From: an uncultured bacterium | GTDB lineage: Bacteria; Acidobacteriota; HRBIN11; JAKEFK01 | Length of the DNA: 64,000 bases | Direction: 5' to 3' | NCBI GenBank assembly: GCA_963777505.1 | Contig: CAVZQN010000004.1 | Coordinates: 384,001 to 448,000, forward strand | Shown here: one piece after another, positions 5,634 to 58,323 of the stretch | Numbering within the stretch: the first letter of the stretch is position 1 | Layout of the letters: each line of letters starts with the position of its first letter | Notes under the pieces: generated by a model | Told to the model about the DNA's origin: nothing | Seen by the model: the letters and a program-made list of their open reading frames with translations, nothing else | Databases searched by the model: none | Translations under genes and position numbers: made by a program

Positions 5634-6758
5634 GTGATGGAGTGTTCAAAAGCAGTAATTCCAAATCGATGTAAAAGAGAAATCATTAAAACTTTGATCC
5701 ATGATTTTTCAAAATGGCACAGTTTGTTCATTATTGTGCTCTTTTTTTTGTTGGCGCCATTTTCGTTATTCGCGTATGAGTTCAATGATTCACACTTTCA
5801 TTTGACCAGTTATATTCAGGAAGGGACAGACATTCATGAATTCGTAAAAATAATGGGAACGACTGTTGGCCGTTCTACTTTATTCGGAATTCCGTTGCAG
5901 CAGCAATGGGCCTACGGAAACACGGGCGATTTTGCTCCGACTTACTATCTTCAAACGGATGCTCCGCTTTATTACTACTCCTTTACAGATGCCCACATTG
6001 CGACGGCATATAAGTCTTTGAATCCCGAACAGCAGGCGCGTCTGGATCCGATGATTACCGGATTCAATCCTACAGACATGTATGCAGCTGATCATATCCG
6101 GCGCGTGCTTCAAACATTCCCTGGAGTGTTTACGGGCATCGGTGAATTTACTATTCACAAAGAGTTCGTCTCATCAAAAATTGCTGGTGATACTGCAAGC
6201 CTGACAAATCCGGCCTTAGACAAGATTCTGGACTTCGCAGCAGAAGCAGGGTTGGTTGCGATTCTTCACAACGATATCAATATGCCGTTTCCCAAACCGG
6301 ATCAGGAGCCATACATGCTCGTGCAATTAAAAGAGCTATTTATGCGGCATCCGAAAACGACAATCATCTGGGCCCACATTGGTCTGGGGAGAATTGTCCG
6401 TCCTGTAGACGAACAAGCTGCATTGATTGAACGTGCTCTCAACAACAAAGAAATGAGTCACGTTTACTTTGACATTTCATGGGACGAAGTAGCGAAATAC
6501 GCTGTTGCTACTCCCGAAGCTACAAAAACAGTCGCAGATTTGATCAATCGATTTCCGGACCGCTTCCTGTTTGGGACCGATGTGGTCGCGCCTAAAAACG
6601 TAAAAGCGATGACGGATGTGTTCCATATATATGATCCCGTCTGGAAGTTACTTACCAAAGAAGCAAGCCACAAAGTTCGGATCGGAAATTATGAGCGGCT
6701 ATTTAATGACGCCAGGACAAAAGTCAGAGCCTGGGAAAAAGTAAATATACGGAGATAA
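5634..6758 (+). CDS. Secreted amidohydrolase-superfamily metalloenzyme (start uncertain)
   Basis: Hydrophobic signal ending SLFA-YEF; DSHFH (HxH), GIGE, LHND, WAHIG and FGTD metal ligands. Confidence 0.82.
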   Translation: MMECSKAVIPNRCKREIIKTLIHDFSKWHSLFIIVLFFLLAPFSLFAYEFNDSHFHLTSYIQEGTDIHEFVKIMGTTVGRSTLFGIPLQQQWAYGNTGDFAPTYYLQTDAPLYYYSFTDAHIATAYKSLNPEQQARLDPMITGFNPTDMYAADHIRRVLQTFPGVFTGIGEFTIHKEFVSSKIAGDTASLTNPALDKILDFAAEAGLVAILHNDINMPFPKPDQEPYMLVQLKELFMRHPKTTIIWAHIGLGRIVRPVDEQAALIERALNNKEMSHVYFDISWDEVAKYAVATPEATKTVADLINRFPDRFLFGTDVVAPKNVKAMTDVFHIYDPVWKLLTKEASHKVRIGNYERLFNDARTKVRAWEKVNIRR

Positions 6759-6762
6759 ACAG

Positions 6763-8073
6763 ATGAGATATAGAGCCAAGTTTTCTTACATCAACATCGG
6801 GTGGCTGTGGGGATTCGTTTTAATATTTTTCCTCGCGCCATCCATATACGCAGAAGCAAATGAGGTCGAATCTTTTGATTTAGTGGCTTCTGCATCATTG
6901 GATGATGCTGCAGCGCAGGATGCTGAGACAGTTGAAGCAAAACCAAAATTTGATATTTACGGTTTTGCAATGTTGGACACCGGATATCAAACCGGACAAA
7001 ACGATCCGAATTGGTTTGATGTTGTAAGGCCGACAAAACTTCCTTCTTTTGACGATGAGTTTGGCGAAGATGGCCGCTGGTTCGCAGGAGTTCGTCAATC
7101 GCGTTTTGGTGCGAAGGCTTACTTCCCAACAGATCTTGGCGAATTAAGAACAACATTTGAATTCGAATTATTTGGTACAGGTGTAGATCAGGGACAGACG
7201 ACATTTCGTTTGCGACATGCATATGGTGAGCTAGGTCAATTTGGTGCAGGCCAATACTGGAGCCCGTTCATGGATATCGATGTGTTCCCAAATACGATTG
7301 AGTATTGGGGACCAACCGGAATGGTATTCTTTCGGAACGTTCAAGTACGCTGGATGCCGATCCAGGGTGATTCACGTTTGACGATAGCAGTTGAGCGGCC
7401 TGGTGCCAGTGCGGATGCCGGCTCCATCGCAGACCGTATCGAACTTCAAGGTGTTCGCGGACGATTTCCAGTGCCAGATATTTCTGCTGAGTACCGCTAT
7501 GGCGGAAATAGCTGGGGCTATGTCGAAGCGGCAGGAATTTTCAGAAAGATGTACATAGATGATACCAATACGGATGAATTTGATCTGGATCAGGATTTAA
7601 CCGGTTGGGGCATTAATTTAAGTTCAAACCTGAAATTCGGAAACGATACGCTTCGACTTCAATACGTTTTTGGTGAAGGCATTCAAAACTACATGAATGA
7701 TGCGCCGGTTGATGTTGGAGCGAAGAGCAATCCTGGAAACGTCGTAACGCCAGTTGAAGGTGAAGCGCTTCCACTTCAAGGACTCGTTATTTTTTATGAC
7801 CACACCTGGGGTGATGGTGACTGGACCACTTCAGTCGGCTATTCAATGATCGACATTGAAAATAGTGATCTGCAATTAGCAAGCGCTTTTAAGGCCGGTC
7901 ATTACGCAATCGGCAACCTTCTTTACTATCCCGCACCGAACGTGATGATGGGCGGCGAACTTCAATGGGGCCGCAGAGAAAACTTCGCTGATGGCTTTGA
8001 AGTCGATGATTTTCGCATTCAATTCTCATTCAAATATAACTTTTCGGTCTCTTTAGGAGGTAACGAATTATGA
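6763..8073 (+). CDS. DcaP-like outer-membrane porin
   Basis: Signal peptide; DIYGFAM, RQSRFG, FRLRHAYG and GQYWSPFMD motifs; amphipathic beta strands ending FSFKYNF. Confidence 0.8.
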   Translation: MRYRAKFSYINIGWLWGFVLIFFLAPSIYAEANEVESFDLVASASLDDAAAQDAETVEAKPKFDIYGFAMLDTGYQTGQNDPNWFDVVRPTKLPSFDDEFGEDGRWFAGVRQSRFGAKAYFPTDLGELRTTFEFELFGTGVDQGQTTFRLRHAYGELGQFGAGQYWSPFMDIDVFPNTIEYWGPTGMVFFRNVQVRWMPIQGDSRLTIAVERPGASADAGSIADRIELQGVRGRFPVPDISAEYRYGGNSWGYVEAAGIFRKMYIDDTNTDEFDLDQDLTGWGINLSSNLKFGNDTLRLQYVFGEGIQNYMNDAPVDVGAKSNPGNVVTPVEGEALPLQGLVIFYDHTWGDGDWTTSVGYSMIDIENSDLQLASAFKAGHYAIGNLLYYPAPNVMMGGELQWGRRENFADGFEVDDFRIQFSFKYNFSVSLGGNEL

Positions 8074-11000
8074 GCAGCGTAATGCGATATATAAAACAAC
8101 CATGGCTACTGCTGCTTGTAATAGCCATGTTTACAGTCACATCAGCACAAGCTCAAACCGCTGATGAGATTAATGCTGCACTGAAAGCAGCATATGACAA
8201 ATACTTGACTCTTCAAGAGGGTAAAAATGCTGACTATATTCCTGCACTTGCAAAAGTAGATCCAAATGTTTTTGGAATCGCGTTGGTGACAACCGATGGA
8301 AAGGTCTACACAACAGGAGACATTACGACCGAAGTATCGATCCAATCGATTTCTAAAGTTTTCACAATGGCTCAGGTGATTCAGGAACAAGGATTGGATC
8401 AAATCAGAAATACGATCGGTGTTGATGCAACAGGCGCGCGATTCAATTCGATCATCGCAGTCGAAGGAGTTCGCACAGTTGTTGGCACCGGAGCTCCGGA
8501 AATGAATCCGTTAGTAAATGCAGGCGCAATTTCATCGACCGGTATGGTAAAAGGAGCAAATGCCGATGAGATTTGGAACAAGATCATAGGAATTCATAAT
8601 GATTGTGCCGGGCGTCAGCTTACAGTACTGCAAGATGTTTACAAGTCTGAATCAGATTCGAATCAACGCAACCAGGCAATTGGCGCATTGATGCTTGCGT
8701 ATGGTTACATCAAGACCGATTGGGAACGTGCAGTGGATCTCTACACGCGGCAATGTTCTATCGGCGTGAATGCAAAAGATTTAGCATCAATGGCGGGAAC
8801 ACTCGCAAACGGCGGTAAAAATCCTGTAACTGGCAAACAAGTAATCGATGCGGAGAAAGTTCCAGGAGTACTTGCCGTAATGGCAACTGCAGGTTTGTAC
8901 GATGATTCGGGCAAGTGGCTTTTTGCAACAGGACTGCCTGCGAAAAGCGGAGTTGGTGGCGGCCTCATTGCTATATCACCAGGCAAATTCGGGATCGCGG
9001 TGATCTCTCCACCACTTGATGATGCAGGAAACAGCGTTAAAGCACAGAAAGCGATCACAGATATTTCAAATGCGTTAGACGGAAATCCATACGCAGTAAC
9101 CCCGGGTGATACTGCAGATATCCAGGGAGAGGTAAAACCAAAATTTGATATTTATGGTTTTGCAATGATGGATACCGGATATCAAAGCGGACAAAACGAT
9201 CCGAATTGGTTTGATGTTGTAAGGCCGACAAAACTTCCTTCTTTTGAAGATGAGTTTGGCGAAGATGGCCGCTGGTTCGCAGGAGTTCGTCAATCGCGTT
9301 TTGGTGCGAAGGCTTACTTCCCAACAGATCTTGGCGAATTAAGAACAACATTTGAATTCGAATTATTTGGTACCGGTGTAGATCAGGGACAAACGACATT
9401 TCGTTTGCGACATGCATATGGTGAGCTAGGTCAATTTGGTGCAGGCCAATACTGGAGCCCGTTCATGGATATCGATGTGTTCCCAAATACGATTGAATAT
9501 TGGGGACCAACCGGAATGGTGTTCTTTCGGAACGTTCAAGTACGCTGGATGCCAATCCAGGGTGATTCACGGTTGACGATTGCAGTTGAGCGGCCTGGTG
9601 CCAGTGCGGATGCCGGCTCTATCGCAGACCGTATCGAACTTCAAGGTGTTCGCGGACGATTTCCAGTGCCAGATATTTCTGCTGAGTACCGCTATGGCGG
9701 AAATAGCTGGGGCTATGTCGAAGCGGCAGGAATTTTCAGAAAGATGTACATAGATGATACCAATACGGATGAATTTGATCTGGATCAGGATTTAACCGGT
9801 TGGGGCATTAATTTGAGTTCAAACCTGAAATTCGGAAACGATACGCTTCGACTTCAATACGTTTTTGGTGAAGGCATTCAAAACTACATGAATGATGCGC
9901 CGGTTGATGTTGGAGCGAAGAGCAATCCTGGAAACGTAGTAACGCCAGTTGAAGGTGAAGCGCTTCCACTTCAAGGACTCGTTATTTTTTATGACCACAC
10001 CTGGGGTGATGGTGACTGGACCACTTCAGTCGGCTATTCAATGATCGACATTGAAAATAGTGATCTGCAATTAGCAAGCGCTTTTAAGGCCGGTCATTAC
10101 GCAATCGGTAACCTTCTTTACTATCCCGCACCGAACGTAATGATGGGCGGCGAACTTCAATGGGGCCGCAGAGAAAACTTCGCTGATGGCTTTGAAGTCG
10201 ATGATTTTCGTATTCAATTCTCATTCAAATATAACTTTTCGGTCTCTTTAGGAGGTCAATAACCATGAGCAGCTCAATATTAAAATTTGCAACAAGAACA
10301 TGGCTTCTGCTGCTTGTTGTTGCAATGTTTTCAGTAACGTCAGTTGCAGGCTCAAACACCGGATCAAATTAATAGTGCCTTGAAGGCAGCGTATGACAAG
10401 TATCAAAATTTGAAAGAAGGTAAGAATGCGGACTATATTCCTGCACTTGCCAAAGTAGATCCAAATGTTTTTGGAATCGCGTTGGTGACAACCGATGGAA
10501 AGGTTTATTCAACTGGCGATCTGAAGACTGAAGTATCGATCCAATCGATCTCAAAAGTTTTTACGATGGCGCAGGTGATTCAGGAACAGGGATTGGATCA
10601 AATCAGCAAAACGATTGGTGTTGATGCAACAGGCGCGCGATTCAATTCGATCATCGCTGTGGAAGCGGTCAAGACAGTAGTTGGTACGGGAGCACCGGAG
10701 ATGAATCCGTTAGTAAATGCAGGCGCAATTTCATCGACCGGTATGGTAAAAGGAAATTCTGCTGATGAGGTCTGGGCTAAGATCATCGGAATTCATAATG
10801 ATTTTGCTGGCCGACAGCTAACTGTTCTTCAGGATGTATACAAATCGGAGGCCGACACGAACCAGCGCAACCAGGCGATTGGCGCTCTCATGCTGGCTTA
10901 TGGATACATCAAGAATAATTGGCAGCAGGCGGTTGATCTTTACACGAAGCAGTGTTCGATTGGAGTTAACGCGAAAGATTTAGCCACAATGGCCGGTACG

Positions 11001-11300
11001 CTTGCTAATGGCGGAAAAAATCCAGTTACCGGGAAAGTAATTATTGATGCCGCAAAAGTGCCCGGTGTCCTTGCAGTTATGGCGACAGCTGGTTTATACG
11101 ATGATTCCGGCAAATGGCTTTTTGCAACAGGACTGCCTGCAAAGAGCGGAGTAGGGGGCGGCATTATTGCTGTGTCACCAGGGAAATTCGGAATCGCAGT
11201 GATCTCTCCACCACTTGATGATGCAGGAAACAGCGTTAAAGCACAGAAAGTGATCACAGATATTTCAAATGCGTTAGGCGGAAATCCTTACGCTACAAGG
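6939..11300 (+). repeat. Tandem duplication of a 2195-bp porin+glutaminase unit
   Basis: 6939-8061 matches 9134-10256 with only scattered substitutions; glutaminase starts 8070 and 10265 have the same 2195 offset. Confidence 0.9.
8070..10262 (+). CDS. glsA: Glutaminase A fused to a C-terminal DcaP-like porin
   Basis: Signal peptide (AQA-QT); glutaminase motifs YIPALA, SIQSISK, NPLVNAGAI, LPAKSGVGGG and SPPLDDAGNS; short linker; then a near-identical copy of the upstream porin in one uninterrupted 730-aa ORF. Confidence 0.85.
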   Translation: MSSVMRYIKQPWLLLLVIAMFTVTSAQAQTADEINAALKAAYDKYLTLQEGKNADYIPALAKVDPNVFGIALVTTDGKVYTTGDITTEVSIQSISKVFTMAQVIQEQGLDQIRNTIGVDATGARFNSIIAVEGVRTVVGTGAPEMNPLVNAGAISSTGMVKGANADEIWNKIIGIHNDCAGRQLTVLQDVYKSESDSNQRNQAIGALMLAYGYIKTDWERAVDLYTRQCSIGVNAKDLASMAGTLANGGKNPVTGKQVIDAEKVPGVLAVMATAGLYDDSGKWLFATGLPAKSGVGGGLIAISPGKFGIAVISPPLDDAGNSVKAQKAITDISNALDGNPYAVTPGDTADIQGEVKPKFDIYGFAMMDTGYQSGQNDPNWFDVVRPTKLPSFEDEFGEDGRWFAGVRQSRFGAKAYFPTDLGELRTTFEFELFGTGVDQGQTTFRLRHAYGELGQFGAGQYWSPFMDIDVFPNTIEYWGPTGMVFFRNVQVRWMPIQGDSRLTIAVERPGASADAGSIADRIELQGVRGRFPVPDISAEYRYGGNSWGYVEAAGIFRKMYIDDTNTDEFDLDQDLTGWGINLSSNLKFGNDTLRLQYVFGEGIQNYMNDAPVDVGAKSNPGNVVTPVEGEALPLQGLVIFYDHTWGDGDWTTSVGYSMIDIENSDLQLASAFKAGHYAIGNLLYYPAPNVMMGGELQWGRRENFADGFEVDDFRIQFSFKYNFSVSLGGQ

Positions 11301-11309
11301 CCGCGTTGA
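10265..11309 (+). CDS. glsA: Secreted glutaminase A, frameshift near 10343 at the end of the signal peptide
   Basis: ATG 10265 MSSSILKFATRTWLLLLVVAMFSVTS joins QAQTPDQ... if one base is removed; all glutaminase motifs intact. Confidence 0.88.
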
Positions 11310-11353: not shown

Positions 11354-11412
11354 CGGCATCAGTAATTTTGTCGGCTGGGATTAAACAGTTGAACAGAGAT
11401 AGGAGATTGTTT

Positions 11413-12915
11413 ATGAGGGTTCTCTCTGGATTCGGTTCGATATTTTTGCGTTATCTAGTCTGCATCGTTTTCTTTCTCGTTTTACCGCAATTTCTTTCGG
11501 CCCAGGCAGTCTTAATAACTTGTTCGTCCAAGGTAGGCGAGCGCCAATCGTGCCCTGCTGATACTTCGAGGGGTGTTGTTCTTGCTAAATCCTCAGGTGA
11601 GTCTGCCTGCCTGTTAGGGAAGACATGGGGCTACGATGATAAGGGCGTCTGGGTTTCGGACGGTTGTGTCGGTGAATTCATCGTTAAAGGAGGGTCGACA
11701 GAGCAACCGGAGAAGAAAGGGAAACCCGAATACATTCCCAACGCCGGGTTCCTTTTATATGAAGGCGAAAAGGGCGAAATATATATGAGGCTCTTTAGCT
11801 ATGTGCGTTACCTGAATCAGAAAGGTCTGGATCCGAACTATACTGACTTCTTCGGGAATACGTTCGAAGTAAAGCAACGCGAGGATGTTCAGTTAACCAA
11901 GTTCTTTCTGCCGTTTACCGGTTGGTTCTTGACTCCAAAGTTCCGCTACTACCTATATGTATGGTCAGCTAACACATCTCAAGGCGATGCAGCACAGGTG
12001 GTGGGCGCTGGCAACTTGAGTTACAGCTTCAACAGGCATGTGATTTTTGGTGGTGGAATTACCAGTCTTCCTTCTGTGCGAAGCACCGAGGGTCAATTCC
12101 CTTACTGGCACAGCGTAGACAATCGTCTTATTTCGGACGAGTTCTTCCGGGGCTCGTACACAAGCGGCTTTTGGCTCAAAGGAGAGATCTCCGCCGAATT
12201 GAAATATCAGGCGATGATCGGCAATAACCTGAGCACGCTCGGTGTGAGCGCAGCGCAACTGGACAACAAGCTCAATACATCCTCATTCATGCTCCAATGG
12301 TTGCCGACTACAGGTGAGTTCGGCCTTTACGGGACGTATGGCGATTACGACTTTCACGAAAACTTAGCTACACGGCTTGCAGGCCACTACACCCATAGTA
12401 CAGAGGATAGGCAGAGCCAGCCAGGTGCCAACAGCATTGAGAATAGCCAGATCCGGCTAACAGATGGAAGCGTTATCTTCACTCCCAATCTTTTCGGCGA
12501 TGGCATTACGGTTGAACAAGTTGACTACGACATGTCGAGCATTGATGCAGGACTGAAGTGGAAAGGTTTTGCGCTTGAAGGAGAGTACTACTGGCGCTGG
12601 TTAAGTGATTTCCAGGGAAGCAACATGGGAGGAATTGCCGACATCAACGATCACGGTTATCAGCTGCAATTTTCAGCAATGGTTATCCCTAAAGTCCTTC
12701 AGCCCTATATTGGCAGTTCTGGAATCTATGGCGACTTTGGTGATGCATCCGAGTTTCGAGCAGGCGTTAACTGGTATTTCATTGAGCAACGCGGACTCAG
12801 AGTGAATGCGGAATGGATTCATCTAAATAATTCTCCGGTTGGATACATAGCAGTTCCTTATCCAGTGGGTGGAAATGGAGACGTTTTCACCGCCGTTTTG
12901 GAGATGAATTTCTAA
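11413..12915 (+). CDS. Outer-membrane porin-like protein with N-terminal Cys-rich DUF3011-like domain
   Basis: RBS aggag; signal peptide; ITCSS..RQSC..C..GKTWGYD..GVWVSDGC.GEF domain; beta-rich body ending in Phe (LEMNF). Confidence 0.65.
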   Translation: MRVLSGFGSIFLRYLVCIVFFLVLPQFLSAQAVLITCSSKVGERQSCPADTSRGVVLAKSSGESACLLGKTWGYDDKGVWVSDGCVGEFIVKGGSTEQPEKKGKPEYIPNAGFLLYEGEKGEIYMRLFSYVRYLNQKGLDPNYTDFFGNTFEVKQREDVQLTKFFLPFTGWFLTPKFRYYLYVWSANTSQGDAAQVVGAGNLSYSFNRHVIFGGGITSLPSVRSTEGQFPYWHSVDNRLISDEFFRGSYTSGFWLKGEISAELKYQAMIGNNLSTLGVSAAQLDNKLNTSSFMLQWLPTTGEFGLYGTYGDYDFHENLATRLAGHYTHSTEDRQSQPGANSIENSQIRLTDGSVIFTPNLFGDGITVEQVDYDMSSIDAGLKWKGFALEGEYYWRWLSDFQGSNMGGIADINDHGYQLQFSAMVIPKVLQPYIGSSGIYGDFGDASEFRAGVNWYFIEQRGLRVNAEWIHLNNSPVGYIAVPYPVGGNGDVFTAVLEMNF

Positions 12916-12924: not shown

Positions 12925-14259
12925 ATGTTTTGGGTCGAATTGATTCTATTCCTCGCATGCATCGTAGTTGGTGCGCGCATCGGAGGAATTGGACTTGGAA
13001 CAATTGCTGGTTTTGGTTTGATGGTGTTTGTGTTTGTGTTTCAGCTTCCGCCAGGTTCGCCTCCAGGTACAGTGCTTGGGATGATCATTGCAGTCATCAC
13101 TGCTCTTTCCGTAATGCAAGCAGCTGGTGGTCTTGATTATTTAGTACAAACGGCGGAAGGAATTTTGAAAAGTCGCCCGCGCCAGATTACAGTACTCGGT
13201 CCACTTGTTACATACATCCTGGTTTTTGCAGCGGGCACTCAGCATGTGGTTTATGCGCTGCTGCCGGTGATTGCCGAAGTATCGCGTCGCGCAGGAATTC
13301 GGCCGGAGCGTCCGATGTCCATCAGTGTGATCGCTTCACTTCAAGGTGTGATCGCATCGCCAGTATCAGCAGTAACAGTCGCTCTGGTAGGAGTGCTGGC
13401 GGTAAAGAATGTAGGTCTCCCGCAGATTCTGATGGTGATTATTCCATCCACATTACTGGGTGTAATGGCAGGAATCCTTTCTGTTTGGTGGACAGGAAAA
13501 GAGCTTGATAAGGATCCGGAATACTTGAAACGGCTTGCGGAAGGAAAAGTAAAGTCTGTTGAGCAAGCGCCTCCATTGGAAGGTCAGGCTCGCACGCGAG
13601 CGATTGGCTCCTGCATCGTATTTGTTCTCGCAATTCTTTCGGTTGTGGCCATTGGGTTATTTCCTGATTTACGGCCAACTTATCAGAAGGTTGTTGAAGA
13701 CGTCACAGAGACGGGCCAGGTTGAGATGGGCAGGGCAATCATGATTTTGATGCTTTGCGCAGCAGGTCTCATCATGGTTTTTTTTAAGGCGAGTCCAGAA
13801 GCCGCAGTGAAAGGAAGCATGATGAAAGGTGGTCTGGTCGCGCTCATTTCAATCCTTGGAGTTTCATGGTTGGGATCATCGTTTTTTGAAGCCAATCAAA
13901 ACATAATTGTGAATGCTATTTCTTCTACGATTCAATCACATCCATGGATTTTTTCTGTAGGCTTGTTCACTTTATCTATACTTTTATTCAGTCCAGCGGC
14001 CACCATTGCAATCCTTGCACCGGTTGGGATCGCTCTTGGTCTTGGTGCGCAGGAAATGATCGGTGCATATCCGTCAGTGAACGGACTTTTCTTTTTACCT
14101 ACATACGGCACAATTCTGGCTGCTGTTTCATTCGATCAATCGGGGACAACACGCATCGGAAAGTATTTGCTGAACCACAGTTTCATGATCCCGGGTATGG
14201 TGACAACTATTGTTGCAACTATCACGGCGTTGCTTTTGAGTTCAATCGTTTTCAAGTAA
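12925..14259 (+). CDS. Anaerobic C4-dicarboxylate transporter (DcuA/DcuB family)
   Basis: GARIGGIGLG, MQAAGGLDYLV, RPERPMS, FFLPTYG and FDQSGTTRIGKYLLNHSFMIPG motifs. Confidence 0.92.
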   Translation: MFWVELILFLACIVVGARIGGIGLGTIAGFGLMVFVFVFQLPPGSPPGTVLGMIIAVITALSVMQAAGGLDYLVQTAEGILKSRPRQITVLGPLVTYILVFAAGTQHVVYALLPVIAEVSRRAGIRPERPMSISVIASLQGVIASPVSAVTVALVGVLAVKNVGLPQILMVIIPSTLLGVMAGILSVWWTGKELDKDPEYLKRLAEGKVKSVEQAPPLEGQARTRAIGSCIVFVLAILSVVAIGLFPDLRPTYQKVVEDVTETGQVEMGRAIMILMLCAAGLIMVFFKASPEAAVKGSMMKGGLVALISILGVSWLGSSFFEANQNIIVNAISSTIQSHPWIFSVGLFTLSILLFSPAATIAILAPVGIALGLGAQEMIGAYPSVNGLFFLPTYGTILAAVSFDQSGTTRIGKYLLNHSFMIPGMVTTIVATITALLLSSIVFK

Positions 14260-14419
14260 ATAGGAAGTCAATATGAAAAATTACTATAATATTAATACTA
14301 ATATGATCAGTCCCAATTGCTGTTCTGCCCAGGACAAGTCTCGGGTGTAGAAAGATCTACTTGGGTAAAAACAGATTCCTGCCGAAGCATATTACGGCGT
14401 GCAAACAGCGCGCGCTTTT

Positions 14420-14532: not shown

Positions 14533-14567
14533 GAAAAATGCAGGAATTATTAAGAGGTGTTTCGATT

Positions 14568-15245
14568 ATGAAAAATTTACGAATATTGTTTTGGATACTG
14601 TCAGGGTTGTTTCTTGCTTCATCATCGGCATGGAGTCAGGATGCTCCGAAAGTCGAATTTAGCTTTACCCTTGGATGGACTTTTAGTGATGGTGTAAGCG
14701 GAGAGACTGTGGTTCTTGGTCCTGATGGAAACCTTTACGATCGAATTGATCCCAAGGATTCTTCCTCATGGGGATTTACCGGAGAATATTTTGTTACCGA
14801 CAATATCGGAGTTGGATTTCTCTTTAACCGTCAGAAAAGCAAACTCGAAGTAGGAGGAACTGCAACACGCGAAATCGGTGATTTAAATCTGGATAATTAT
14901 CATGGAACATTTTCTTATAACTTCGGCTCGTCTGATACGCGGGCTCGCCCATTTCTACAAATGGGTATTGGTGCCACACACTACGGAGAAGTGGGCTTCG
15001 AATTGAACGGGAATCAGGGCAATATCGACGGTTTGACAAAAGCGTCGGTCACAGTAGGTGGAGGGTTGAAGTTTTTCGCAACAAAAAACATTGGATTCAG
15101 GTTACAGGCCCGTCTGACACCAACGTACATTAGCACGGATGAAGATGGTTGGTGGTGTGACCCTTTCTGGGGTTGTTATACCGTTGGGAATGTACAGTAT
15201 TCAAACCAGATAGAAATGGGAGGTGGAATCAACATCCGATTCTGA
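14568..15245 (+). CDS. Small outer-membrane beta-barrel protein
   Basis: RBS gaggtg, signal peptide AWS-QD, alternating beta strands, C-terminal GGGINIRF. Confidence 0.75.
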   Translation: MKNLRILFWILSGLFLASSSAWSQDAPKVEFSFTLGWTFSDGVSGETVVLGPDGNLYDRIDPKDSSSWGFTGEYFVTDNIGVGFLFNRQKSKLEVGGTATREIGDLNLDNYHGTFSYNFGSSDTRARPFLQMGIGATHYGEVGFELNGNQGNIDGLTKASVTVGGGLKFFATKNIGFRLQARLTPTYISTDEDGWWCDPFWGCYTVGNVQYSNQIEMGGGINIRF

Positions 15246-16784: not shown

Positions 16785-18392
16785 ATGACAAAAAAAGGTT
16801 TTGAAATTCTGCGTGATAAAGAATTGTACAAGTCCATTTCTTTTTCGCGCAAAGAAAGGGATGAGCTTGGCCTGACCGGGCTATTACCTTACGCCGTTGT
16901 TAGTCAGCAACAGTTAGTGGAACGCGTAATGGAATCACTAAGACGCCAACCAGAAGATATCGACAAATATATGTCGCTGTCCTCCCTTCAAGAACGGAAT
17001 GAGCGCCTTTTTTACCGCGTAGTCATGGATTACATTGAAGAAATCTTACCGTTAATCTACACGCCTACAGTAGGGCAGGCTTGCAAGAAATTTTCTCATA
17101 TTTCCAGAGAGCCGAAAGGCTTCTTTATTACGCCTGATGATAAAAACAAGATTAGAAAAATTCTTGATAACTGGGGGTCAAGCGACATAAGAGTGATTGT
17201 TGTAACGGACGGCCAGCGCATTTTAGGTTTGGGTGACCTGGGTGCGAATGGAATGGGAATACCGATCGGAAAGCTGGCATTGTACAGTGCATGCGGCGGC
17301 ATTCCGCCGCGCCATTGTTTGCCAGTCATGTTGGATGTAGGAACCAATAACCAGGAGCTTTTGGATGATTTTCTCTACCTTGGTTATCCGCACAAACGGA
17401 TTGAAGGAAAAGAGTACTTTGATCTGGTTGAAGAGTTTGTAACTGCCGTACAAGAAAAATATCCAAACGCCTTAATTCAGTTTGAAGATTTCTTAACTCC
17501 TAACGCATATGCGCTTTTGAATAAATACAGGAACCGGGTACTTTGTTTTAACGACGACATTCAAGGCACTGCCGCAGTAGCTGTGGCAGGCGTCTATGCT
17601 TCCACAAGAATTACGAAACTGAAGTTTTCCGATTTACGAATCATGTTTTTGGGAGCTGGTTCTGCCGCAACAGGTATAGCAGATTTAATGGTTAGCGCTT
17701 TTCAGCAAGAAGGACTTACTAAGGAAGAATCGGTTAACCATTTATGGTTTGTGGATGTAAACGGACTGGTTGTGTCAGGCAGAAACGATCTTATGGAACA
17801 TAACATTCCCTATGCCCACAAGTATGAGCAACTAAATTTTGTTGATGCTATTGATGCCATCAAGCCGCAGGTTTTGATTGGCGCTACCGGTGCGCCTGGT
17901 ACATTCACAAAAGAAGTAATCGAACATATGAGCGCAATCAATGATCGAGCAGTTATTTTTGCACTTTCGAATCCAACTTCAAAAGCGGAGTGTACGGCCG
18001 AGCAAGCCTATACCTGGAGTAAAGGCAAAGCTGTTTTTTCTAGTGGAAGTCCTTTTGGCAAAATCACGTATCAGGGTAAAGATTTTCGTCCAGGTCAGGG
18101 GAATAATGCTTACGTTTTTCCGGGAATAGGTCTGGGTGCTGTAACTTGCCATGCGCGAATCATCCCTGATGAATTTTTCTTGACTGCTGCCCGTACTCTA
18201 GCTCAATTGGTTGAAGAAAAAGATATACAACAAGGCTCACTTTATCCGCCTTTGACAGACCTCAGAAAAATATCACTCGAAATTGCAGTGAGCGTTTCGG
18301 AAAAAGCTTACGAATTAGGATTAGCAAGAATTGAACGGCCAAAAGATTTGAAGAAAAGCATTCAGGATTATATGTATGACCCGCGTTATTGA
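16785..18392 (+). CDS. maeA: NAD-dependent malic enzyme
   Basis: IYTPTVG, VTDGQRILGLGDLG, QFEDF, FNDDIQGT, GAGSA, LSNPT and QGNN motifs. Confidence 0.95.
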   Translation: MTKKGFEILRDKELYKSISFSRKERDELGLTGLLPYAVVSQQQLVERVMESLRRQPEDIDKYMSLSSLQERNERLFYRVVMDYIEEILPLIYTPTVGQACKKFSHISREPKGFFITPDDKNKIRKILDNWGSSDIRVIVVTDGQRILGLGDLGANGMGIPIGKLALYSACGGIPPRHCLPVMLDVGTNNQELLDDFLYLGYPHKRIEGKEYFDLVEEFVTAVQEKYPNALIQFEDFLTPNAYALLNKYRNRVLCFNDDIQGTAAVAVAGVYASTRITKLKFSDLRIMFLGAGSAATGIADLMVSAFQQEGLTKEESVNHLWFVDVNGLVVSGRNDLMEHNIPYAHKYEQLNFVDAIDAIKPQVLIGATGAPGTFTKEVIEHMSAINDRAVIFALSNPTSKAECTAEQAYTWSKGKAVFSSGSPFGKITYQGKDFRPGQGNNAYVFPGIGLGAVTCHARIIPDEFFLTAARTLAQLVEEKDIQQGSLYPPLTDLRKISLEIAVSVSEKAYELGLARIERPKDLKKSIQDYMYDPRY

Positions 18393-18657: not shown

Positions 18658-18975
18658 ATGGCAAATGCATTGAAAAAAGCAGCGGTGAAAAGAGCAGTGA
18701 AGAAAAGGGTTGTAAAGAAAGCCATTAAGCGAGCAGCTGTAAAAAAAGCGCTCAGGAGAAAAGCGTTAAAGCGAGCAGCTTTAAAGAAAGCTCTGAGGAG
18801 AAGAGCAATAAAGAAAGCAGCTTTAAAGAAAGCTCTAAGAAGAAGAGCCGTTCAGCGAGCAGCTTTAAAGAAAGCCCTCAAGAGAAGAGCTGTACAGAAC
18901 ATCATCAGGAAAGCTGCTCTAAAAAAAGGAATTAAGAGAAATGCTCTTCAGAAAGCAATTTTGAAAGGTGTGTAG
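18658..18975 (+). CDS. Highly basic K/R/A-rich histone H1-like protein
   Basis: RBS ggagg; 44 of 105 residues K/R, no D/E; about 14-aa repeat AALKKALRRRA; followed by a terminator. Confidence 0.75.
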   Translation: MANALKKAAVKRAVKKRVVKKAIKRAAVKKALRRKALKRAALKKALRRRAIKKAALKKALRRRAVQRAALKKALKRRAVQNIIRKAALKKGIKRNALQKAILKGV

Positions 18976-49817: not shown

Positions 49818-49853
49818 CCACGGGATAGAGTAGCAGCCTCCGCTATTACGGAG
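49818..49853. promoter_or_regulatory. Tandem palindromic operator, copy C
   Basis: CCACGGGATAGAGTAG-n4-CTCCGCTATTACGGAG. Confidence 0.7.
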
Positions 49854-49915: not shown

Positions 49916-49930
49916 TGGCACATTAGTTGC
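49916..49930 (+). promoter_or_regulatory. sigma54 promoter, rightward
   Basis: TGGCAC-ATTAG-TTGC, exact consensus. Confidence 0.75.
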
Positions 49931-53000: not shown

Positions 53001-53192
53001 TTGAAAATCTCAGAACATGAAAACGGTTTCTTAATTCATCCCACGGTGCTCGCATCAGAAGAAGTGACTTCAGAAAAAATTGAAAAGTTTCGAAAGGCTA
53101 TTGAACAGAAAGTAGGATCGCCGATTCAGATTGACGCAATAATCCTGCAAACAAAACGGATTGAATCCCCATCAACAAACAAGAAGGAATGA
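50055..53192 (+). CDS. Fusion of APC amino-acid permease-like domain, USP-like domains and DUF389
   Basis: N-terminal 12-TM-like region (PFHPLIP), central RVLACL and DLLLLGAS (USP), C-terminal GAMLVSPLMSPI, QILSRTHP, AGALPGVA and LFLTNL (DUF389). Confidence 0.78.
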   Translation: MGSGHSSVEFSRTQGILSATALGGNVILGLGVFVAGGQLVLQTGGDAPLVFCVAALLFLPFIFSCVQRSSGAASSASFYAAARSSGSSLRLFFTTWLMLAGYVTLGALLAYGAALRANTGLERVLGLEVGIELVLFLIVAIAFVKELFTKVEGWRSRTIMFWTCALFLMVLAVLASLARFRTGASIPKIQPLQHWLIGVSMLASTLWSIDIVLNYRGQFRNPNRTITLSLIIIFVGGSLLSALTSVEVLRNPSLLMQNWLEVLTWNESRLELLVLIAGFLICVSGLLRAMTRITRLLGSMILDGALPKSNDTGRSLQYYSGILVVLLASSAIFLSISYLLLISGFAALVAMVLYLQPLLKKDLSRIVQISLPFHPLIPMLSIAMSIFLMWILPLQNLFILGIWLIAGAILYFSYARKKMLPAMQQEHVFTAQGAKPSTEVYRVLACLSNDEINESLVLIGSSIAASKNGELLVLRILETSEFVPMELQQRRGKTEWDRIQDQLQKHQLSGRVTVPVVRMAPDSISGIKATIREFAPDFILVEWPEEPVERVRKNRLQSLLQLTARPLGILKGQISEKPKKLTVACGSSAHTIQAIQLGEAIASANESTIEALRIFKRAESDQIAKETIQSAIDQSETKIPPKIVVHAENDLEEGILKQAETSDLLLLGASDDPISGRPLPDGQSMEIARQRKQATLIVKSKEESGRFLVRQMLAQLTNRVTALTPKERSELLSQLRVGLQARTDFYLMVALAASIAITGLIMNDGSIVLGAMLVSPLMSPIVGIACGIALGNLDLMRRSSASTFKGMFLVLGVGVLMTFILPTGEPTDQILSRTHPGIYDLLAALAAGAAGAYSLGRRPVAGALPGVAMSLSLEPPLATAGYGLSTSQFWITGGALLLFLTNLAAIVLSGVGVYILLGLRPPKKSGVSIVGKAVASVILVTLILIVPLGLGTYSAVQKGHLKFQIESQFRDAALHERFELLKLKISEHENGFLIHPTVLASEEVTSEKIEKFRKAIEQKVGSPIQIDAIILQTKRIESPSTNKKE

Positions 53193-53199
53193 CCATCAA

Positions 53200-53838
53200 A
53201 TGAAAGAAATAAACAAAATATTCCAGAACAATCAAACATGGGCTGCACAAAAGTTAAAAACCGATCCGCAATATTTTAAGAAATTATCCAAAGGACAAAA
53301 TCCAAAATTACTCTACATCGGATGTTCGGATAGCAGAGTTGCTGCAGAAGAGTTGATGGGATTGCAGCCTGGTGAAATTTTCGTTCAAAGAAATATCGCG
53401 AACCTTGTGGTGAGTACTGACAATAATCTCAATGCTGTTGTGCAATATGCCGTTGAGCATTTGAAAGTAAAACACATCATCGTTTGCGGCCATTATGATT
53501 GTGGCGGAGTGAAAGCTGCCTTACATCCCAGTGATATGGGACAACTGAATAGCTGGTTACAAACACTACGTGATGTATTCCGTTTGCATCAGGCAGAATT
53601 GAATAGCATTCAGAATGCCCGCGAGCGATTTGACAGATTAGTGGAATTGAATGTGACAGAACAATGCATCAACCTCATCAAAATTGATCACGTTCAGCGT
53701 TCCTGGTACAAAACAGGATTCCCTAAAGTTCACGGCTGGGTATTTGATGTGCGCACAGGTGTTTTGAAAGACCTGCGTATAAAGCTGGAAGAAGTATTTG
53801 GCGAGATCCGAACGATTTATGATTTAAAGCCGGTTTGA
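53200..53838 (+). CDS. can: Beta-class carbonic anhydrase
   Basis: CSDSR, RNIAN and GHYDCGG motifs. Confidence 0.93.
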   Translation: MKEINKIFQNNQTWAAQKLKTDPQYFKKLSKGQNPKLLYIGCSDSRVAAEELMGLQPGEIFVQRNIANLVVSTDNNLNAVVQYAVEHLKVKHIIVCGHYDCGGVKAALHPSDMGQLNSWLQTLRDVFRLHQAELNSIQNARERFDRLVELNVTEQCINLIKIDHVQRSWYKTGFPKVHGWVFDVRTGVLKDLRIKLEEVFGEIRTIYDLKPV

Positions 53839-53840
53839 AA

Positions 53841-53984
53841 GTTTGTAGTAAGTTTGTAGTAAGGCACGCTGGCGAATCTGCCGAAGGCAGATGAGGCAGT
53901 GCCGTGTAGTCAGCTCACGGCACTGTCTCGCATACGCTCGACTGCGTGCCTTACTACAAACAGCCAGCGTACCTAACTACAAAC
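53841..53984. repeat. GTAG-type REP/MITE-like nested palindrome
   Basis: gtttgtagtaaggcacgc ... gcgtgccttactacaaac perfect 18-bp inverted repeat with internal hairpins and duplicated ends. Confidence 0.75.
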
Positions 53985-55116
53985 ATTTTATTAATACGAT
54001 TGTTCTATCATCAGATTGCGGTGCCGATCCGACGAATGCTTCCAACGCACTCTGAATTTCTGGAAGGATTTGGTCCGGTGACTTCTGTGCATTGCTTTTT
54101 AAAATGTCCTTCAACCGCTCATCTCCAAATTCCTGATCCTCGACATTGAACCCTTCAGTAATGCCATCGGTGTAAAGCAAGATTACATCTCCATGATCGA
54201 TTTCAATCTGTTCTTGTGTACATTGCATCGATTCCATGATTCCCACGACAGATCCGGTTGGGCTCAATTCAAAAATATCGTCTTGACTCGCTCTATACCA
54301 GTATGGGGGATTGTGTCCGCAGTTTACATACGTAAGGAGCCTTTTTTCCGGATCAATTTCTACATAAAAAACAGTGACGAACATGCCTCGGGCTGCATCT
54401 GCGCAGATCAAAGCGTTGGACTGAGTGAAAATTTCGGCAGGAGTGAGTGATGTTTGTGCTTTTGCTCGCACAATGCTTCGGATCGAAGCCATGAACAATG
54501 CTGCCGGCATACCTTTGCCCGAAACATCTGCAATAACAATTCCCTGACGGTCTTTACTTCGAATAAAGTCGTAATAATCACCGCTGACTTCGCGCGCCGG
54601 CTGCCAGTTCGCTGCAAACTCCCATCCCGGAATTTGTGGCATGTTGAGTGGAATCAACTGCGATTGGACGCGATATGCCATTTCACGTTCTCGTTTATGA
54701 GCGCGAGCCAGTTCCTCATTTTTCTCCGCCAGACTGCGACGCAACTGATCCATACTCAGGTGTGTATTGATACGCGCCAGCAATTCATGCGGATTAAAAG
54801 GTTTTCCAACATAATCCACCGCACCAACTTCAAAGCCGGAAACGATGTCAGCCGTTTCTGTTTTGGCTGTCAGGAAAATAATCGGAATGTTGCGCAAGGT
54901 TTCTGACTTTTTGATTTGCCGGCAGGTTTCAATACCATCAAGTTCCGGCATCATCACATCCAGCAGTATCAGATCTGGCTGAACTTTTTCCAGCACCTGG
55001 AGTGCTTGTTTCCCATTGGTCGCGATACTCAGTTGGTATCCTTTTTCCTTGAGAATTCCAGACAATATCTGAATGTTCGCGGGTGTGTCATCGACAATCA
55101 GAATGCGTTCGTTCAT
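53977..55116 (-). CDS. Response regulator receiver + PP2C phosphatase (RsbU-like)
   Basis: ILIVDD, LLDVMMP, KPF; SGDYYD, ADVSGKG, YTDG and DDRT motifs. Confidence 0.92.
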   Translation of the reverse strand: MNERILIVDDTPANIQILSGILKEKGYQLSIATNGKQALQVLEKVQPDLILLDVMMPELDGIETCRQIKKSETLRNIPIIFLTAKTETADIVSGFEVGAVDYVGKPFNPHELLARINTHLSMDQLRRSLAEKNEELARAHKREREMAYRVQSQLIPLNMPQIPGWEFAANWQPAREVSGDYYDFIRSKDRQGIVIADVSGKGMPAALFMASIRSIVRAKAQTSLTPAEIFTQSNALICADAARGMFVTVFYVEIDPEKRLLTYVNCGHNPPYWYRASQDDIFELSPTGSVVGIMESMQCTQEQIEIDHGDVILLYTDGITEGFNVEDQEFGDERLKDILKSNAQKSPDQILPEIQSALEAFVGSAPQSDDRTIVLIKCL

Positions 55117-56526: not shown

Positions 56527-56562
56527 CCACGGAAATACGGAGTTTGCTACTTTATTCCGTAG
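56527..56562. promoter_or_regulatory. Tandem palindromic operator, copy D
   Basis: CCACGGAAATACGGAG-n4-CTACTTTATTCCGTAG. Confidence 0.7.
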
Positions 56563-56602
56563 GTAGATCGACCTCGTCCTCCAATTCTCGACGTGCTCGG
56601 AC

Positions 56603-56617
56603 TGGCACGAGCCTTGC
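56603..56617 (+). promoter_or_regulatory. sigma54 promoter
   Basis: TGGCAC-GAGCC-TTGC, exact consensus. Confidence 0.75.
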
Positions 56618-56706
56618 CTAAATCGAAGGAGGAAGAACTCTATATCCAATAATCCTGACCCGAGGAATCGTAATTGTTCTAAGTTATTCGTTAATGGAGA
56701 ACAACA

Positions 56707-58323
56707 ATGGAAAAGGATGAAGAAGTTAAGACGCCTGAAAATATTGAAGATCCGCTTGGTCGCACAGACCAGCTGACTTCGCAAGAGATTCCACCTGGAG
56801 TGGATCGTCGAACTTTTATGATGCGAAGCGCTGTCGTTGGAGCTACAGCGGTCATTACAGGCCGCTATCTGTCTGCAGAGGAAAAGACAAAAAGAGCAAC
56901 AGGAACACCGCCGAAATTAGATCCCACTCTCAATGTGGTGAAGAAGGGTAAAGGTCCAGTGATGACGACTCTGGAAGAATTCTACAAAGTTGGACCAGGC
57001 CCATCAAGTTCGCACACAATCGGTCCGATGCGAATTACGTATGATTTCTATCAACGTTGCACAAAACTTCCAGCGGATCAACTCGCCAAAGCAACAGCAT
57101 TGAAAGTTCACTTGTTCGGCAGCCTCAGTGCCACGGGCAAGGGTCATGGCACGGAACGCGCAGCGCTTGCGGGTGTGGTAGGCAAAGAACCGGCAACAGT
57201 CGATCCCGCATTTCTGGATGGCTTGCGCGACAACCCAAATCAAACTTTCCCGGTCAAGCTTGGCACATCAACAATCAACGTTACTTTGAAAGATGTTGTT
57301 TACGATGCCGAAAAGGGTGACTTTAAACACCCGAACACGATGACTGCAAAACTCCTTGCTGGAAACGATGTTCTGCTTGAGCAGGAATATTACTCTGTGG
57401 GCGGAGGATTTATTGAGTGGAAAGGGTACACACCTCCGAAGAAAAATCCGCCAAAGTATCCTTATGCAACGATGAAGGAACTGCGAGAACACGCAGAGAA
57501 AAACAAGTTGTCGATTGCGCAAGTCATTCTTGCGAATGAGATGGCAATCACTGGAAAAAGTGAACAGGAAATTTATGCTTTCATCGACAAGATCACCGGT
57601 GCAATGGTTGCGATCGTAAAGTCAGGGCTTGGTGCTCCGGAAGATTCCGTGCTCCCAGGGCCGATCAAACTGAAAAGCAAAGCAGCGACCGTGTACAGAC
57701 GCGCGATGGACGAGTCTTACCAGTCCGATCGCGGGATTGGTGCGTTGTCCGCGTATGCATTGGCTGGATCTGAAGAAAACGGACGAGGTCATCTTGTAGT
57801 TACCGCACCGACTGGAGGATCCGCTGGAGTTTTACCAGCTCTTGTCTACGGTTTGGGTGAAGGCGGACGAAAGCTTTCACAGGACAAAATCCGGCAGGGG
57901 ATGCTTGCTGCAGCAGCAATCGGATATTTGTGTAAGCACAATGCGACCTTTCTGCTGCCGAAGGCGGATGCCAGGCAGAAATCGGTGTTGCATCAGGAAT
58001 GGCTGCTGCATTAGTCGCAACTGCCCATGACTCGAGTCCCAGGGTCGTTGAGAATGCAGCGGAATCGGCAATCGAACATCATCTAGGAATGACATGCGAT
58101 CCAGTTGCTGGATACGTTCAAATCCCATGTATTGAGCGCTGTGCATTCGGCGCCGTCAAAGCGTGGACTGCTTACGCAATAGCTAGCAATGAACTTGAAT
58201 CCCAACATCGCGTAACTTTGGACGAAACGATCACAGCATTAGCTCAGACCGCGAAGGACATGAACACCAAGTACAAGGAAACAAGCGAAGCTGGACTTGG
58301 CCCTTTCCGTAACTCTCTGCTGA
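56707..58323 (+). CDS. sdaA: Fe-S L-serine ammonia-lyase (single chain) with Tat-like N-terminus; frameshifts near 57950 and 58300
   Basis: GPGPSSSHTIGPM, GSLSATGKGHGT, YYSVGGGF, VTAPTGGSAG, (A)EGGCQAE, GMTCDPVAGYVQIPCIER and YKETSEAGL; DRRTFM twin-arginine motif. Confidence 0.88.

Follow-up and report, generated by a model that had tools for sequence, protein, structure and literature searches.

Gene content of the glutaminase operon

The stretch of DNA analysed here, hereafter the window, comprises 64,000 nucleotides (nt; positions 384001-448000 of contig C4) from the genome of an uncultured bacterium of the Acidobacteriota (5.23 Mb, 14 contigs, 95.9% complete). It carries several operons behind σ54-type promoters, among them one for two glutaminases (GlsA) with predicted export signals and one for an iron-sulfur (Fe-S) L-serine dehydratase (SDH). 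The 48 open reading frames (ORFs) of the window were annotated with Pfam, and the key ORFs also with NCBIfam. All genes named in an initial annotation, made from the sequence alone, were found to be present, and an Rfam scan of the window returned no family at threshold. The names attached to close homologues were Acidobacteriota, Blastocatellia and Pyrinomonadaceae. Among public sequencing runs, the best covered at most 0.17 of the window's words, and four runs yielded short contigs only.

The glutaminase operon (Table 1) encodes, in this order, a small ABM-domain protein, an Amidohydro_2 metal hydrolase, a DcaP-family channel (DcaP1), a glutaminase fused to a second DcaP-type channel (GlsA1-DcaP2), a second glutaminase (GlsA2), a porin with a DUF3011 domain and a Dcu carrier, and is followed by a terminator-like hairpin. 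By profile, motif and fold, both GlsA copies are glutaminases, predicted to hydrolyse glutamine. They scored 334 and 339 bits against PF04960 (cut-off 27), and 410.6 and 413.3 against the glutaminase A model NF009020 (cut-off 395). Residues S93 and K96 of GlsA1 are invariant in 27 fusion proteins and align with S-I-S-K in the structure of YbaS (1U60); this Ser-x-x-Lys motif presumably provides the catalytic residues. The two signal-bearing genes are the only PF04960 matches in the whole genome, in which no cytoplasmic GlsA copy was found.

In the amidohydrolase, the HxH, H and D metal-ligand columns are conserved. Its AlphaFold2 (AF2) model had a predicted local distance difference test score (pLDDT) of 86.5, and Foldseek retrieved only generic amidohydrolase TIM barrels with TM-scores of 0.5-0.7. 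A search for its substrate gave no sequence match in the PDB better than an E-value of 0.9, and only clusters of the same family in the ESM Atlas. The DUF3011 protein is Porin_O_P-like by language-model features, which we treat as a lead only; the DUF3011 domain itself is described as Cys-rich and lectin-like in the available text of PMC5484111.

A glutaminase fused to an outer-membrane channel

The ORF of the fusion runs from the GlsA domain (residues 51-337) through the DcaP barrel (residues 408-723) without a stop codon, and the barrel scored 61.5 bits against PF19577 (cut-off 27). Homologues were counted among the best 120 database matches listed, for this protein as for the dehydratase and the aspartase described below. 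Of the 120 matches to the fusion, 70 are at least 700 residues long, and in 68 of these 70 the GlsA motif lies near the N-terminus, behind a signal peptide. A strictly in-frame fusion was present in 5 of 72 related loci, which are species-representative loci (L-numbers) from a scan of genome contigs whose gene content was mapped by tblastn. The fusion recurs in independent assemblies and is not an assembly accident. The AF2 model of the 730-residue fusion, built on a low-diversity alignment of 27 rows, had a pLDDT of 62 and was used for fold labels only; at this level of confidence, Foldseek matched it to YbaS (TM-score 0.75) and to chain A of the 16-stranded DcaP structure 6EUS (TM-score 0.79, E-value 1.3e-17). 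The N-terminal periplasmic coiled coil of DcaP was found in neither channel: the fusion has the GlsA domain in its place, and DcaP1 has an acidic linker of about 30 residues.

The crystal structure of DcaP places the N-terminus in the periplasm (bioRxiv 10.1101/306035), and the glutaminase should therefore hang below the pore of the fusion. The pore of DcaP itself prefers carboxylates according to the available text of two reports (bioRxiv 10.1101/306035; 10.1101/2025.07.02.662759). Moreover, an outer-membrane barrel has to pass the inner membrane first, so that the fused GlsA1 must cross it too. The fusion is thus the strongest single argument for a predicted extracytoplasmic location of GlsA. 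If the predictions hold, it would represent a natural example of substrate channelling by an enzyme-porin fusion at the outer membrane.

Export signals and frameshifts

GlsA1 has about 28 extra N-terminal residues, residue 31 being aligned with residue 4 of YbaS (1U60, E-value 8.6e-78), and these residues form a leader with a basic region, a hydrophobic stretch and A-Q-A. GlsA2 has a similar type of leader, encoded from the ATG at 10265, and the N-terminus of the amidohydrolase is hydrophobic immediately upstream of the HxH metal motif. In the dehydratase, the SDH_beta domain begins at residue 91, behind an N-terminal extension of about 85-90 residues. The leader reads D-R-R-T-F-M-M, followed by 12 uncharged residues, a basic residue and L-S-A (R-Y-L-S-A). 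Signals of the twin-arginine translocation (Tat) pathway combine a motif resembling S/T-R-R-x-F-L-K with a core of low hydrophobicity, a c-region that includes a basic residue, and an A-x-A site, and the SDH leader conforms to this consensus by sequence. TatC is encoded in the genome (233 bits, C4:520629-521264).

The initial annotation had assigned export signals to the two glutaminases, the amidohydrolase and the dehydratase, and their predicted signals indeed turned out to be kept among homologues. According to a crude rule of our own (basic n-region, 9-residue uncharged hydrophobic core and small-x-small site), the N-terminus is signal-like in 80 of the 83 GlsA proteins encoded in the 72 loci and in 38 of their 46 amidohydrolases, and the passing GlsA copies include those of cultured Iodobacter (L049 and L062). 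The amidohydrolases that fail the rule are mostly frameshifted genes of metagenome-assembled genomes. Control proteins in those loci did not pass (malic enzyme 0/3, Pta 0/6, pyruvate:ferredoxin oxidoreductase (PFOR) 0/1). All 120 listed SDH homologues have RRxF and at least 12 uncharged residues, 112 of them with a site like that of signal peptidase I (SPase-I) and 3 with a lipobox. Divergent SDH homologues in L042 and L077 have different leaders that are again of the RR/hydrophobic/cleavage type, some with a lipobox, and ten ordinary SDHs from a sample of 121 genomes of the phylum begin directly at the catalytic domain. The signals are kept while neighbouring N-terminal residues vary. The Sec-type signals of GlsA1, GlsA2 and the amidohydrolase and the Tat-type signal of SDH are real, conserved sequence features, from which export of the enzymes is predicted. 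As a separate observation, the divergent SDH homologues at L042:~17900-18100 and L077:~1300-1500 have a Cys-rich C-x2-C...C-x2-C region before the twin-arginine motif.

Several genes of the window are interrupted. One extra T at position 10344 breaks the frame of the GlsA2 signal peptide, whereas in an independent soil-metagenome contig that lacks this T (a single contig of depth 2.4) the leader reads through into the enzyme. The SDH gene has two single-base frameshifts, near 57945 and near 58300; in another assembly, the 98%-identical protein P0122 is intact across the first of these positions and broken elsewhere. Since two of the sites are unbroken in near-identical sequences of independent origin and the breaks differ between assemblies, the frameshifts look like consensus or assembly errors of long reads, as judged from the sequences, and not like gene decay. 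In total, at least five single-base frameshifts were seen, the others being in the genes for AcrB (1286-1359) and for a DUF4136 lipoprotein (4743-4862), and a further one is possible at 38331-38729/36902-38470.

A palindrome upstream of σ54-type promoters

The σ54 motif matched seven times in the window as compared with 2.8 expected matches, and 2 of 100 shuffles reached seven. Five of the seven matches are intergenic and lie at most 400 nt upstream of an ORF on the same strand, a placement for which 4.4% of positions qualify (binomial probability 3e-6). The σ54 promoters of the window are preceded by the palindrome CTCCG-N6-CGGAG, which the window contains six times with at most one mismatch (1.03 expected; 0 of 100 shuffles). 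Genome-wide there are four perfect copies, all within C4:382496-433838 and each 53-135 nt upstream of a σ54 site, and 99 copies with one mismatch, three of which lie within 135 nt upstream of such a site. When the 48 sites in the genome that match the σ54 pattern were ranked by their best upstream palindrome, the top six belonged to the activator operon described below, the glutaminase operon, the AspT/YidE gene, the gene for an alpha/beta-hydrolase lipoprotein, the APC-DUF389/carbonic anhydrase operon and an operon on another contig, C8. The control regions of the SDH and glutaminase operons share a layout of the 16-mer, 8 nt and TTTATTCCGTRGG, and in the whole genome this 13-mer occurs only in these two regions (at 56551 and 5149, respectively).

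The same architecture was found in other genomes. Forty σ54 sites with at least 60 nt of upstream sequence were counted in the related loci. A palindrome within 250 nt upstream is perfect at 20 of them, mostly about 100 nt away, and has one mismatch at 7, two at 6, three at 5 and four at 2. Co-regulation had been claimed in the initial annotation, and the presence of the palindrome with at most one mismatch at 27 of the 40 sites indicates that it is conserved elsewhere. The genes behind these 27 sites were those of the conserved cassette described below (12 sites), SDH directly (3), an ORF with SDH further downstream (2, the ORF in L011 being an OMP_b-brl gene), other OMP_b-brl genes (3), ABM genes (3), a σ54 activator gene (1) and ORFs without an assigned family (2); one site lies at a locus edge without an ORF. 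The SDH genes concerned are in L012 and L025 (perfect palindromes) and L026 (one mismatch), the ABM ORFs in L025, L032 and L041, and OMP_b-brl is the first ORF at four places (L003, L011, L022 and L038). The strict σ54 pattern with TTGCW as -12 element matched at one site in 1.36 Mb of the related loci; in these GC-rich genomes the -12 element is mostly GTGC.

The window thus holds most of what its sequence identifies as a real but patchy σ54 regulon. The earlier view that many genes of the window lie downstream of a shared σ54 motif is borne out for the five promoter-placed matches with their palindromes; it does not extend to the malic enzyme gene (16785-18392, + strand), to the peptidase/CobW block at 19-28 kb or to the SpoIIE/T2SSE/glycosidase block at 40-49.6 kb, where no palindrome/σ54 site was found. 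None was seen upstream of the window's OMP_b-brl gene either. Two gaps, of about 340 and 440 nt, lie between the K+ channel gene (Ion_trans_2, 34526-35173, - strand) and the regulon promoter closest to it, and the link of this gene to the regulon is uncertain.

Two operons outside the window complete the set of seven promoters. The seventh precedes the C8 operon, which encodes an aspartate ammonia-lyase, a type II asparaginase, a Porin_O_P protein and a DUF2252 protein. The aspartase (NF008909: 640 bits, cut-off 510, aligned from residue 38) and the asparaginase (TIGR00520: 431 bits, cut-off 314) both have signal peptides, and the N-terminus is signal-like in 117 of the 120 listed aspartase homologues. 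These two enzymes broaden the range of extracytoplasmic deamination reactions that had been suggested before and that may now be predicted for the regulon. The activator operon (L089, corresponding to C4:372001-384000, - strand) begins with two palindromes side by side and a σ54 site, and encodes small exported proteins, a 651-residue protein without a family, DUF3300, DUF2950 and SulP-STAS proteins and, in its last gene, which lies upstream of the window at a distance of about 9 kb, a protein with GAF and Sigma54_activat domains (L089:1836-3434, - strand). Beside this operon lies a partial ORF with SDF (GltP/DctA-like) and SBP_bac_3 domains; DUF2950/DUF3300 and SulP genes were also seen near the cassette in L073, L022 and L035.

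Table 1. Features of the glutaminase, dehydratase and other regulon operons, in window coordinates
Feature	Coordinates	Strand	Basis or remarks
Enhancer-like region, glutaminase operon	5125..5161	+	16-mer palindrome 5125-5140 (1 mismatch to CTCCG-N6-CGGAG); 13-mer TTTATTCCGTGGG 5149-5161
σ54 -24/-12 promoter TGGCAC-N5-TTGC, glutaminase operon	5259..5273	+	Pattern match
Small ABM-domain protein, first ORF behind promoter	5287..5613	+	Pfam ABM 28.2 bits
Amidohydro_2 metal hydrolase with predicted export signal	5634..6758	+	Pfam
DcaP-family outer-membrane channel DcaP1	6763..8073	+	Pfam PF19577 63.8 bits (cut-off 27)
GlsA1-DcaP2 fusion: signal peptide, GlsA, linker, DcaP barrel	8070..10262	+	Pfam; single ORF
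GlsA2 glutaminase, signal peptide split by extra T	10265/10344..11309	+	Pfam, NCBIfam
Porin with N-terminal Cys-rich DUF3011 (lectin-like) domain, C-terminal ...MNF	11368..12915	+	Pfam
DcuA/DcuB-family C4-dicarboxylate carrier, 9 nt behind porin gene	12925..14259	+	Pfam 418 bits; NF006927 487.7 (cut-off 369)
Terminator-like hairpin, probable operon end	14396..14416	+	Consensus scan only
Small OMP_b-brl outer-membrane protein	14538..15245	+	Pfam
AspT/YidE-family carrier	31285-32874	-	σ54 promoter 32902-32888; perfect palindrome 32955-32970
Alpha/beta-hydrolase (S33-like) lipoprotein	39068-39973	-	σ54 promoter 40043-40029; perfect palindrome 40163-40178
APC-like permease-DUF389 membrane protein, 1045 residues	50055-53192	+	Perfect palindrome 49838-49853; σ54 promoter 49916-49930
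Beta-carbonic anhydrase	53161-53838	+	Behind APC-DUF389 gene
Dehydratase control region	56527..56617	+	2-mismatch palindrome 56527-56542; 13-mer TTTATTCCGTAGG 56551-56563; σ54 promoter 56603-56617
Fe-S L-serine dehydratase with Tat-type signal	56707..58323	+	SDH_beta + SDH_alpha (Pfam); stop at 58321-58323
Pta	58372..59310	+	Without export signal
PFOR	59320..62937	+	Without export signal
DHOD-like protein	62934..63929	+	Without export signal; tightly packed, with Pta and PFOR, behind SDH

A conserved cassette and the dehydratase operon

Gene neighbourhoods had been proposed as a check on the signal-bearing GlsA homologues, and they revealed a cassette that recurs in the 72 loci, usually in the order DUF3011-porin, Amidohydro_2, DcaP, GlsA. 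A DcaP gene lies immediately 5' of GlsA in 50 of the 72 loci, the DUF3011-porin gene is the first cassette gene in most loci, and an OMP_b-brl gene is often found 3' of GlsA. In 11 of 32 related loci, the gene that opens the cassette has a promoter of the σ54 type 20-90 nt 5' of it. If the predictions hold, the cassette would also give the Amidohydro_2 enzyme and the DUF3011-porin a definite place in physiology. Genes of the AspT family, with 44-46% identity, were found close to the cassette in L013, L015, L029 and L055 (4 of the 72 loci), and in L003 (7027-12108) the cassette is followed by an aminotransferase-fold gene and AspT-family carriers, a set that we take to resemble the AspD/AspT aspartate:alanine proton-motive cycle.

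The first SDH fragment of the window scored 231 bits against TIGR00720, below the cut-off of 345, because the gene is split by a frameshift. The full-length, 89%-identical homologue P0123 scored 409, and the family was matched by 71 of 71 homologues. The cysteines and the C-terminal ...TLC are conserved. The dehydratase with the Tat-type signal is the only SDH_alpha match in the genome, in which no cytoplasmic copy was found. In 8 of the 72 loci, an SDH gene and the cassette are at most 10 kb apart, and several of these SDH genes are divergent from the cassette or are trailed by a DcaP/DUF3011-type barrel gene of their own. The order SDH-Pta-PFOR recurs in L043, and Pta is found near the cassette in six loci.

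A proposed role in the catabolism of amino acids

On balance, we favour the view that this σ54 regulon serves the periplasmic deamination of glutamine, asparagine/aspartate and serine, followed by uptake and use of the carbon skeletons. Its products fall into four groups: (a) outer-membrane channels (two of the DcaP type, the DUF3011-porin and Porin_O_P on C8); (b) deaminating enzymes with predicted export (two GlsA proteins, the Tat-signal SDH, the signal-peptide aspartase and the type II asparaginase), to which the Amidohydro_2 enzyme may be added; (c) inner-membrane carriers (Dcu, AspT/YidE and APC-DUF389); and (d) cytoplasmic proteins that would handle pyruvate (PFOR and Pta). The amino acids, free or freed by exported peptidases, would pass the outer membrane through the co-encoded channels. 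In the periplasm they would lose ammonia, glutamine yielding glutamate, asparagine yielding aspartate and then fumarate, and serine yielding pyruvate. Glutamate, fumarate and pyruvate would then be imported, the C4 acids by Dcu, and oxidised or fermented via PFOR and Pta. The gene content, the fusion, the conserved signals and the promoter/enhancer architecture with its conservation are read directly from the DNA. From these we infer the actual export and specificities of the enzymes, the pairing of carriers with products, the identity of the regulator and its signal, and the pay-off in carbon, energy and nitrogen.

More tentatively, and with slightly more reason for doubt than for belief, we propose that Acidobacteriota conserve a periplasmic deaminase compartment. 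One GAF-type σ54 activator, by way of CTCCG-N6-CGGAG, would there control three exported enzymes from families held to be strictly cytoplasmic, GlsA, a class-II aspartase and a Tat-dependent 4Fe-4S SDH, and the glutaminase, tethered to its own channel, would deamidate its substrate on entry, so that nitrogen would be stripped before transport across the inner membrane.

Several observations weigh against the favoured view of a catabolic regulon. An oxygen-labile 4Fe-4S dehydratase is unusual in the periplasm of a soil bacterium, and to our knowledge Dcu carriers are not known as glutamate importers. The operon partners of SDH, PFOR and Pta, are cytoplasmic, so that pyruvate would need to be re-imported, and no pyruvate carrier was identified. 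The Tat profile TIGR01409 scored 16.6 bits on SDH, just below its cut-off of 16.7, and is listed for 5 of 71 full-length SDH homologues at E≤0.05; the Pfam TAT_signal profile gave no match on SDH. Dcu adjoins the cassette in only 2 of the 72 other loci (L042 and L064), and gene content varies in the flanks of the 15 loci compared (86 ORFs), where no inner-membrane carrier or regulator is conserved. In the sample of 121 genomes from the phylum, 3 have the cassette enzyme and 2 the Tat-type SDH, and only the present genome has both; these numbers are too few for a test. Five genomes with cassette and SDH are without a close signal-peptide aspartase and have only paralogues of 45-59% identity, and the C8 operon is therefore not a universal member of the regulon. 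As for the control regions, the number of perfect palindromes (4) is about that expected by chance (an estimated 5 for a random 5.2 Mb), so that only their placement is significant, and the two mismatches of the SDH palindrome are, taken alone, at chance level, as 7 of the 48 sites reach two mismatches. Lastly, the GAF activator, which probably recognises CTCCG-N6-CGGAG, is a candidate assigned by position only.

The regulon might instead serve to scavenge nitrogen under nitrogen limitation, with ammonium being taken up and the carbon skeletons being secondary. The σ54 dependence that the promoter sequences suggest would fit this purpose, and the available text of PMC7962211 ties the periplasmic glutaminase-asparaginase of Pseudomonas to σ54 and AauR and has deamidation freeing usable ammonia. 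However, the activator has a GAF sensor instead of the receiver typical of NtrC, and the presence of PFOR, Pta and the Dcu carrier in the regulon argues for carbon use. Furthermore, no ORF with the annotation amtB, glnA or glnK lies behind any of the seven regulon promoters, although no search by those names was made. We consider it unlikely that nitrogen scavenging is the main function.

Another possibility, which the initial annotation had put forward together with nitrogen harvest and which we regard as quite improbable, is that the ammonia serves mainly for pH homeostasis or acid resistance, with NH3 capturing protons in the periplasm, and with carbonic anhydrase, the AspT-type antiporter and the K+ channel in supporting roles. 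A periplasmic location is predicted for several enzymes that release ammonia, a beta-carbonic anhydrase gene lies within a regulon operon and a SulP-STAS gene within the activator operon, and the aminotransferase-fold and AspT-family genes behind the L003 cassette would suit such a function through their presumed likeness to AspD/AspT. In E. coli and Brucella, a cytoplasmic GlsA does serve acid resistance (PMC5695133). Yet the annotated ORFs of the window include no decarboxylase of the Gad, Adi or Cad type and no GadC-like partner; the PF03641 'lysine decarboxylase' match in the window is one that we take to be a member of the LOG family. The control by a σ54 promoter and a GAF activator is not a known acid-response circuit, PFOR and Pta point to carbon catabolism, and the K+ channel gene is two gaps away from the nearest regulon promoter. 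Acid buffering and nitrogen scavenging are possible main or side benefits of the regulon, and we rank both below the catabolism of carbon skeletons.

It is very improbable that the N-terminal extensions are mis-called starts, anchors or regulatory tails of cytoplasmic enzymes clustered through the shared ancestry of neighbouring genes: the Tat model score is borderline, the signal rule is crude, SDH shares its operon with the cytoplasmic PFOR and Pta and several genes are frameshifted in this assembly, but a glutaminase fused to an outer-membrane barrel cannot remain cytoplasmic, signals are conserved where the adjoining residues vary, alternative SPase-I and lipobox sites follow the same hydrophobic core, frameshifts differ between near-identical assemblies, and the pairing of palindrome and σ54 site is far beyond chance and conserved across genomes.

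Comparison with known systems

The principle of periplasmic deamidation is already known, and the regulon proposed here would be a variation on it. In Campylobacter jejuni, a Sec signal on AnsB opens the use of asparagine via periplasmic deamidation and uptake by DcuAB, periplasmic γ-glutamyltransferase (GGT) opens the use of glutamine, and serine (through SdaA) and aspartate feed the metabolism of pyruvate and fumarate, as described in the available text of PMC4178425. The deamidation in the periplasm and import of acidic products that we read from the present genes resemble this scheme of C. jejuni and Helicobacter pylori, with its secreted AnsB^s and GGT and its uptake by DcuAB, DctA and Peb. 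In contrast to C. jejuni, the predicted glutamine enzyme is GlsA, with the fold of serine-dependent glutaminases, and one copy is fused to a porin. Likewise, aspartase and the Fe-S SDH, both cytoplasmic in C. jejuni, have export signals here. Unlike in either species, outer-membrane channels are co-encoded and one σ54 enhancer site joins the operons.

In its control, the regulon resembles AnsB, the periplasmic glutaminase-asparaginase (PGA), and AatJQMP of Pseudomonas under AauR and RpoN, where the available text of PMC7962211 describes σ54 promoters, an enhancer-binding protein with an inverted-repeat site, and deamidation combined with the uptake of acidic amino acids. That system, so described, uses a type II asparaginase, a two-component response regulator and the site TTCGG-N4-CCGAA, whereas the present operons have GlsA, a candidate GAF activator and CTCCG-N6-CGGAG, and no ABC importer. 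GlsA belongs to the same enzyme family as YbaS (GlsA1) of the E. coli AR2_Q system with GadC, and as GlsA of Brucella. YbaS acts in the cytoplasm, together with the antiporter GadC, in the available account of PMC5695133; the present copies have signal peptides, a porin fusion in one case and σ54 control, and no GadC-like ORF is found in the window. The DcaP domains, by their match to PF19577, resemble DcaP of Acinetobacter baumannii (6EUS), except that an enzyme of about 310 residues replaces the N-terminal coiled coil in the fusion. The dehydratase has the SDH_beta and SDH_alpha domains of the SdaA/TdcG Fe-S dehydratases (TIGR00720), but differs from them in its extension with a twin-arginine signal. 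A full-text literature search, whose coverage leaves most subscription journals outside, found no signal-bearing GlsA, GlsA-porin fusion, Tat-signal SDH, exported aspartase or this enhancer.

If the predictions hold, the cytoplasmic location given in textbooks for GlsA, AspA and the Fe-S SdaA would not be universal, and the Tat pathway would gain a new class of cargo. They would also provide Acidobacteriota with a concrete regulon of seven promoters, for which the DNA site is defined and a candidate regulator is at hand. Acidobacteriota are an abundant phylum in soil, and their use of organic nitrogen bears on the release of ammonium there.

Other features of the window

In three paralogous pairs, the gene for a periplasmic DUF2092 protein precedes that for a DUF6515 protein rich in Gly and Asn (29143-29961/28388-29146, 35699-36466/35208-35687 and 55176-55970/56019-56465). 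Two of the pairs are situated behind regulon promoters, and the third immediately precedes the SDH promoter. No palindrome was seen at the gene for a T2SSE-type ATPase with N-terminal cNMP-binding and MshEN domains (42969-44789), or at those for two SpoIIE-type phosphatases (40207-42804 and 53977-55116), of which the one has GAF domains and the other a receiver domain. Identical longest-contig values (for example 114616, 6395, 17804 and 11582) were noted for several homologues of DcaP, the Tat-type SDH and the signal-peptide aspartase, which hints at shared contigs in other metagenomes. Lastly, the intergenic region between the malic enzyme and SLT-SBP_bac_3 genes has 3.9 copies of a 42-nt repeat unit at 18727-18890 (81% matches); on the minus strand, a T-run comes after a small hairpin in every unit.

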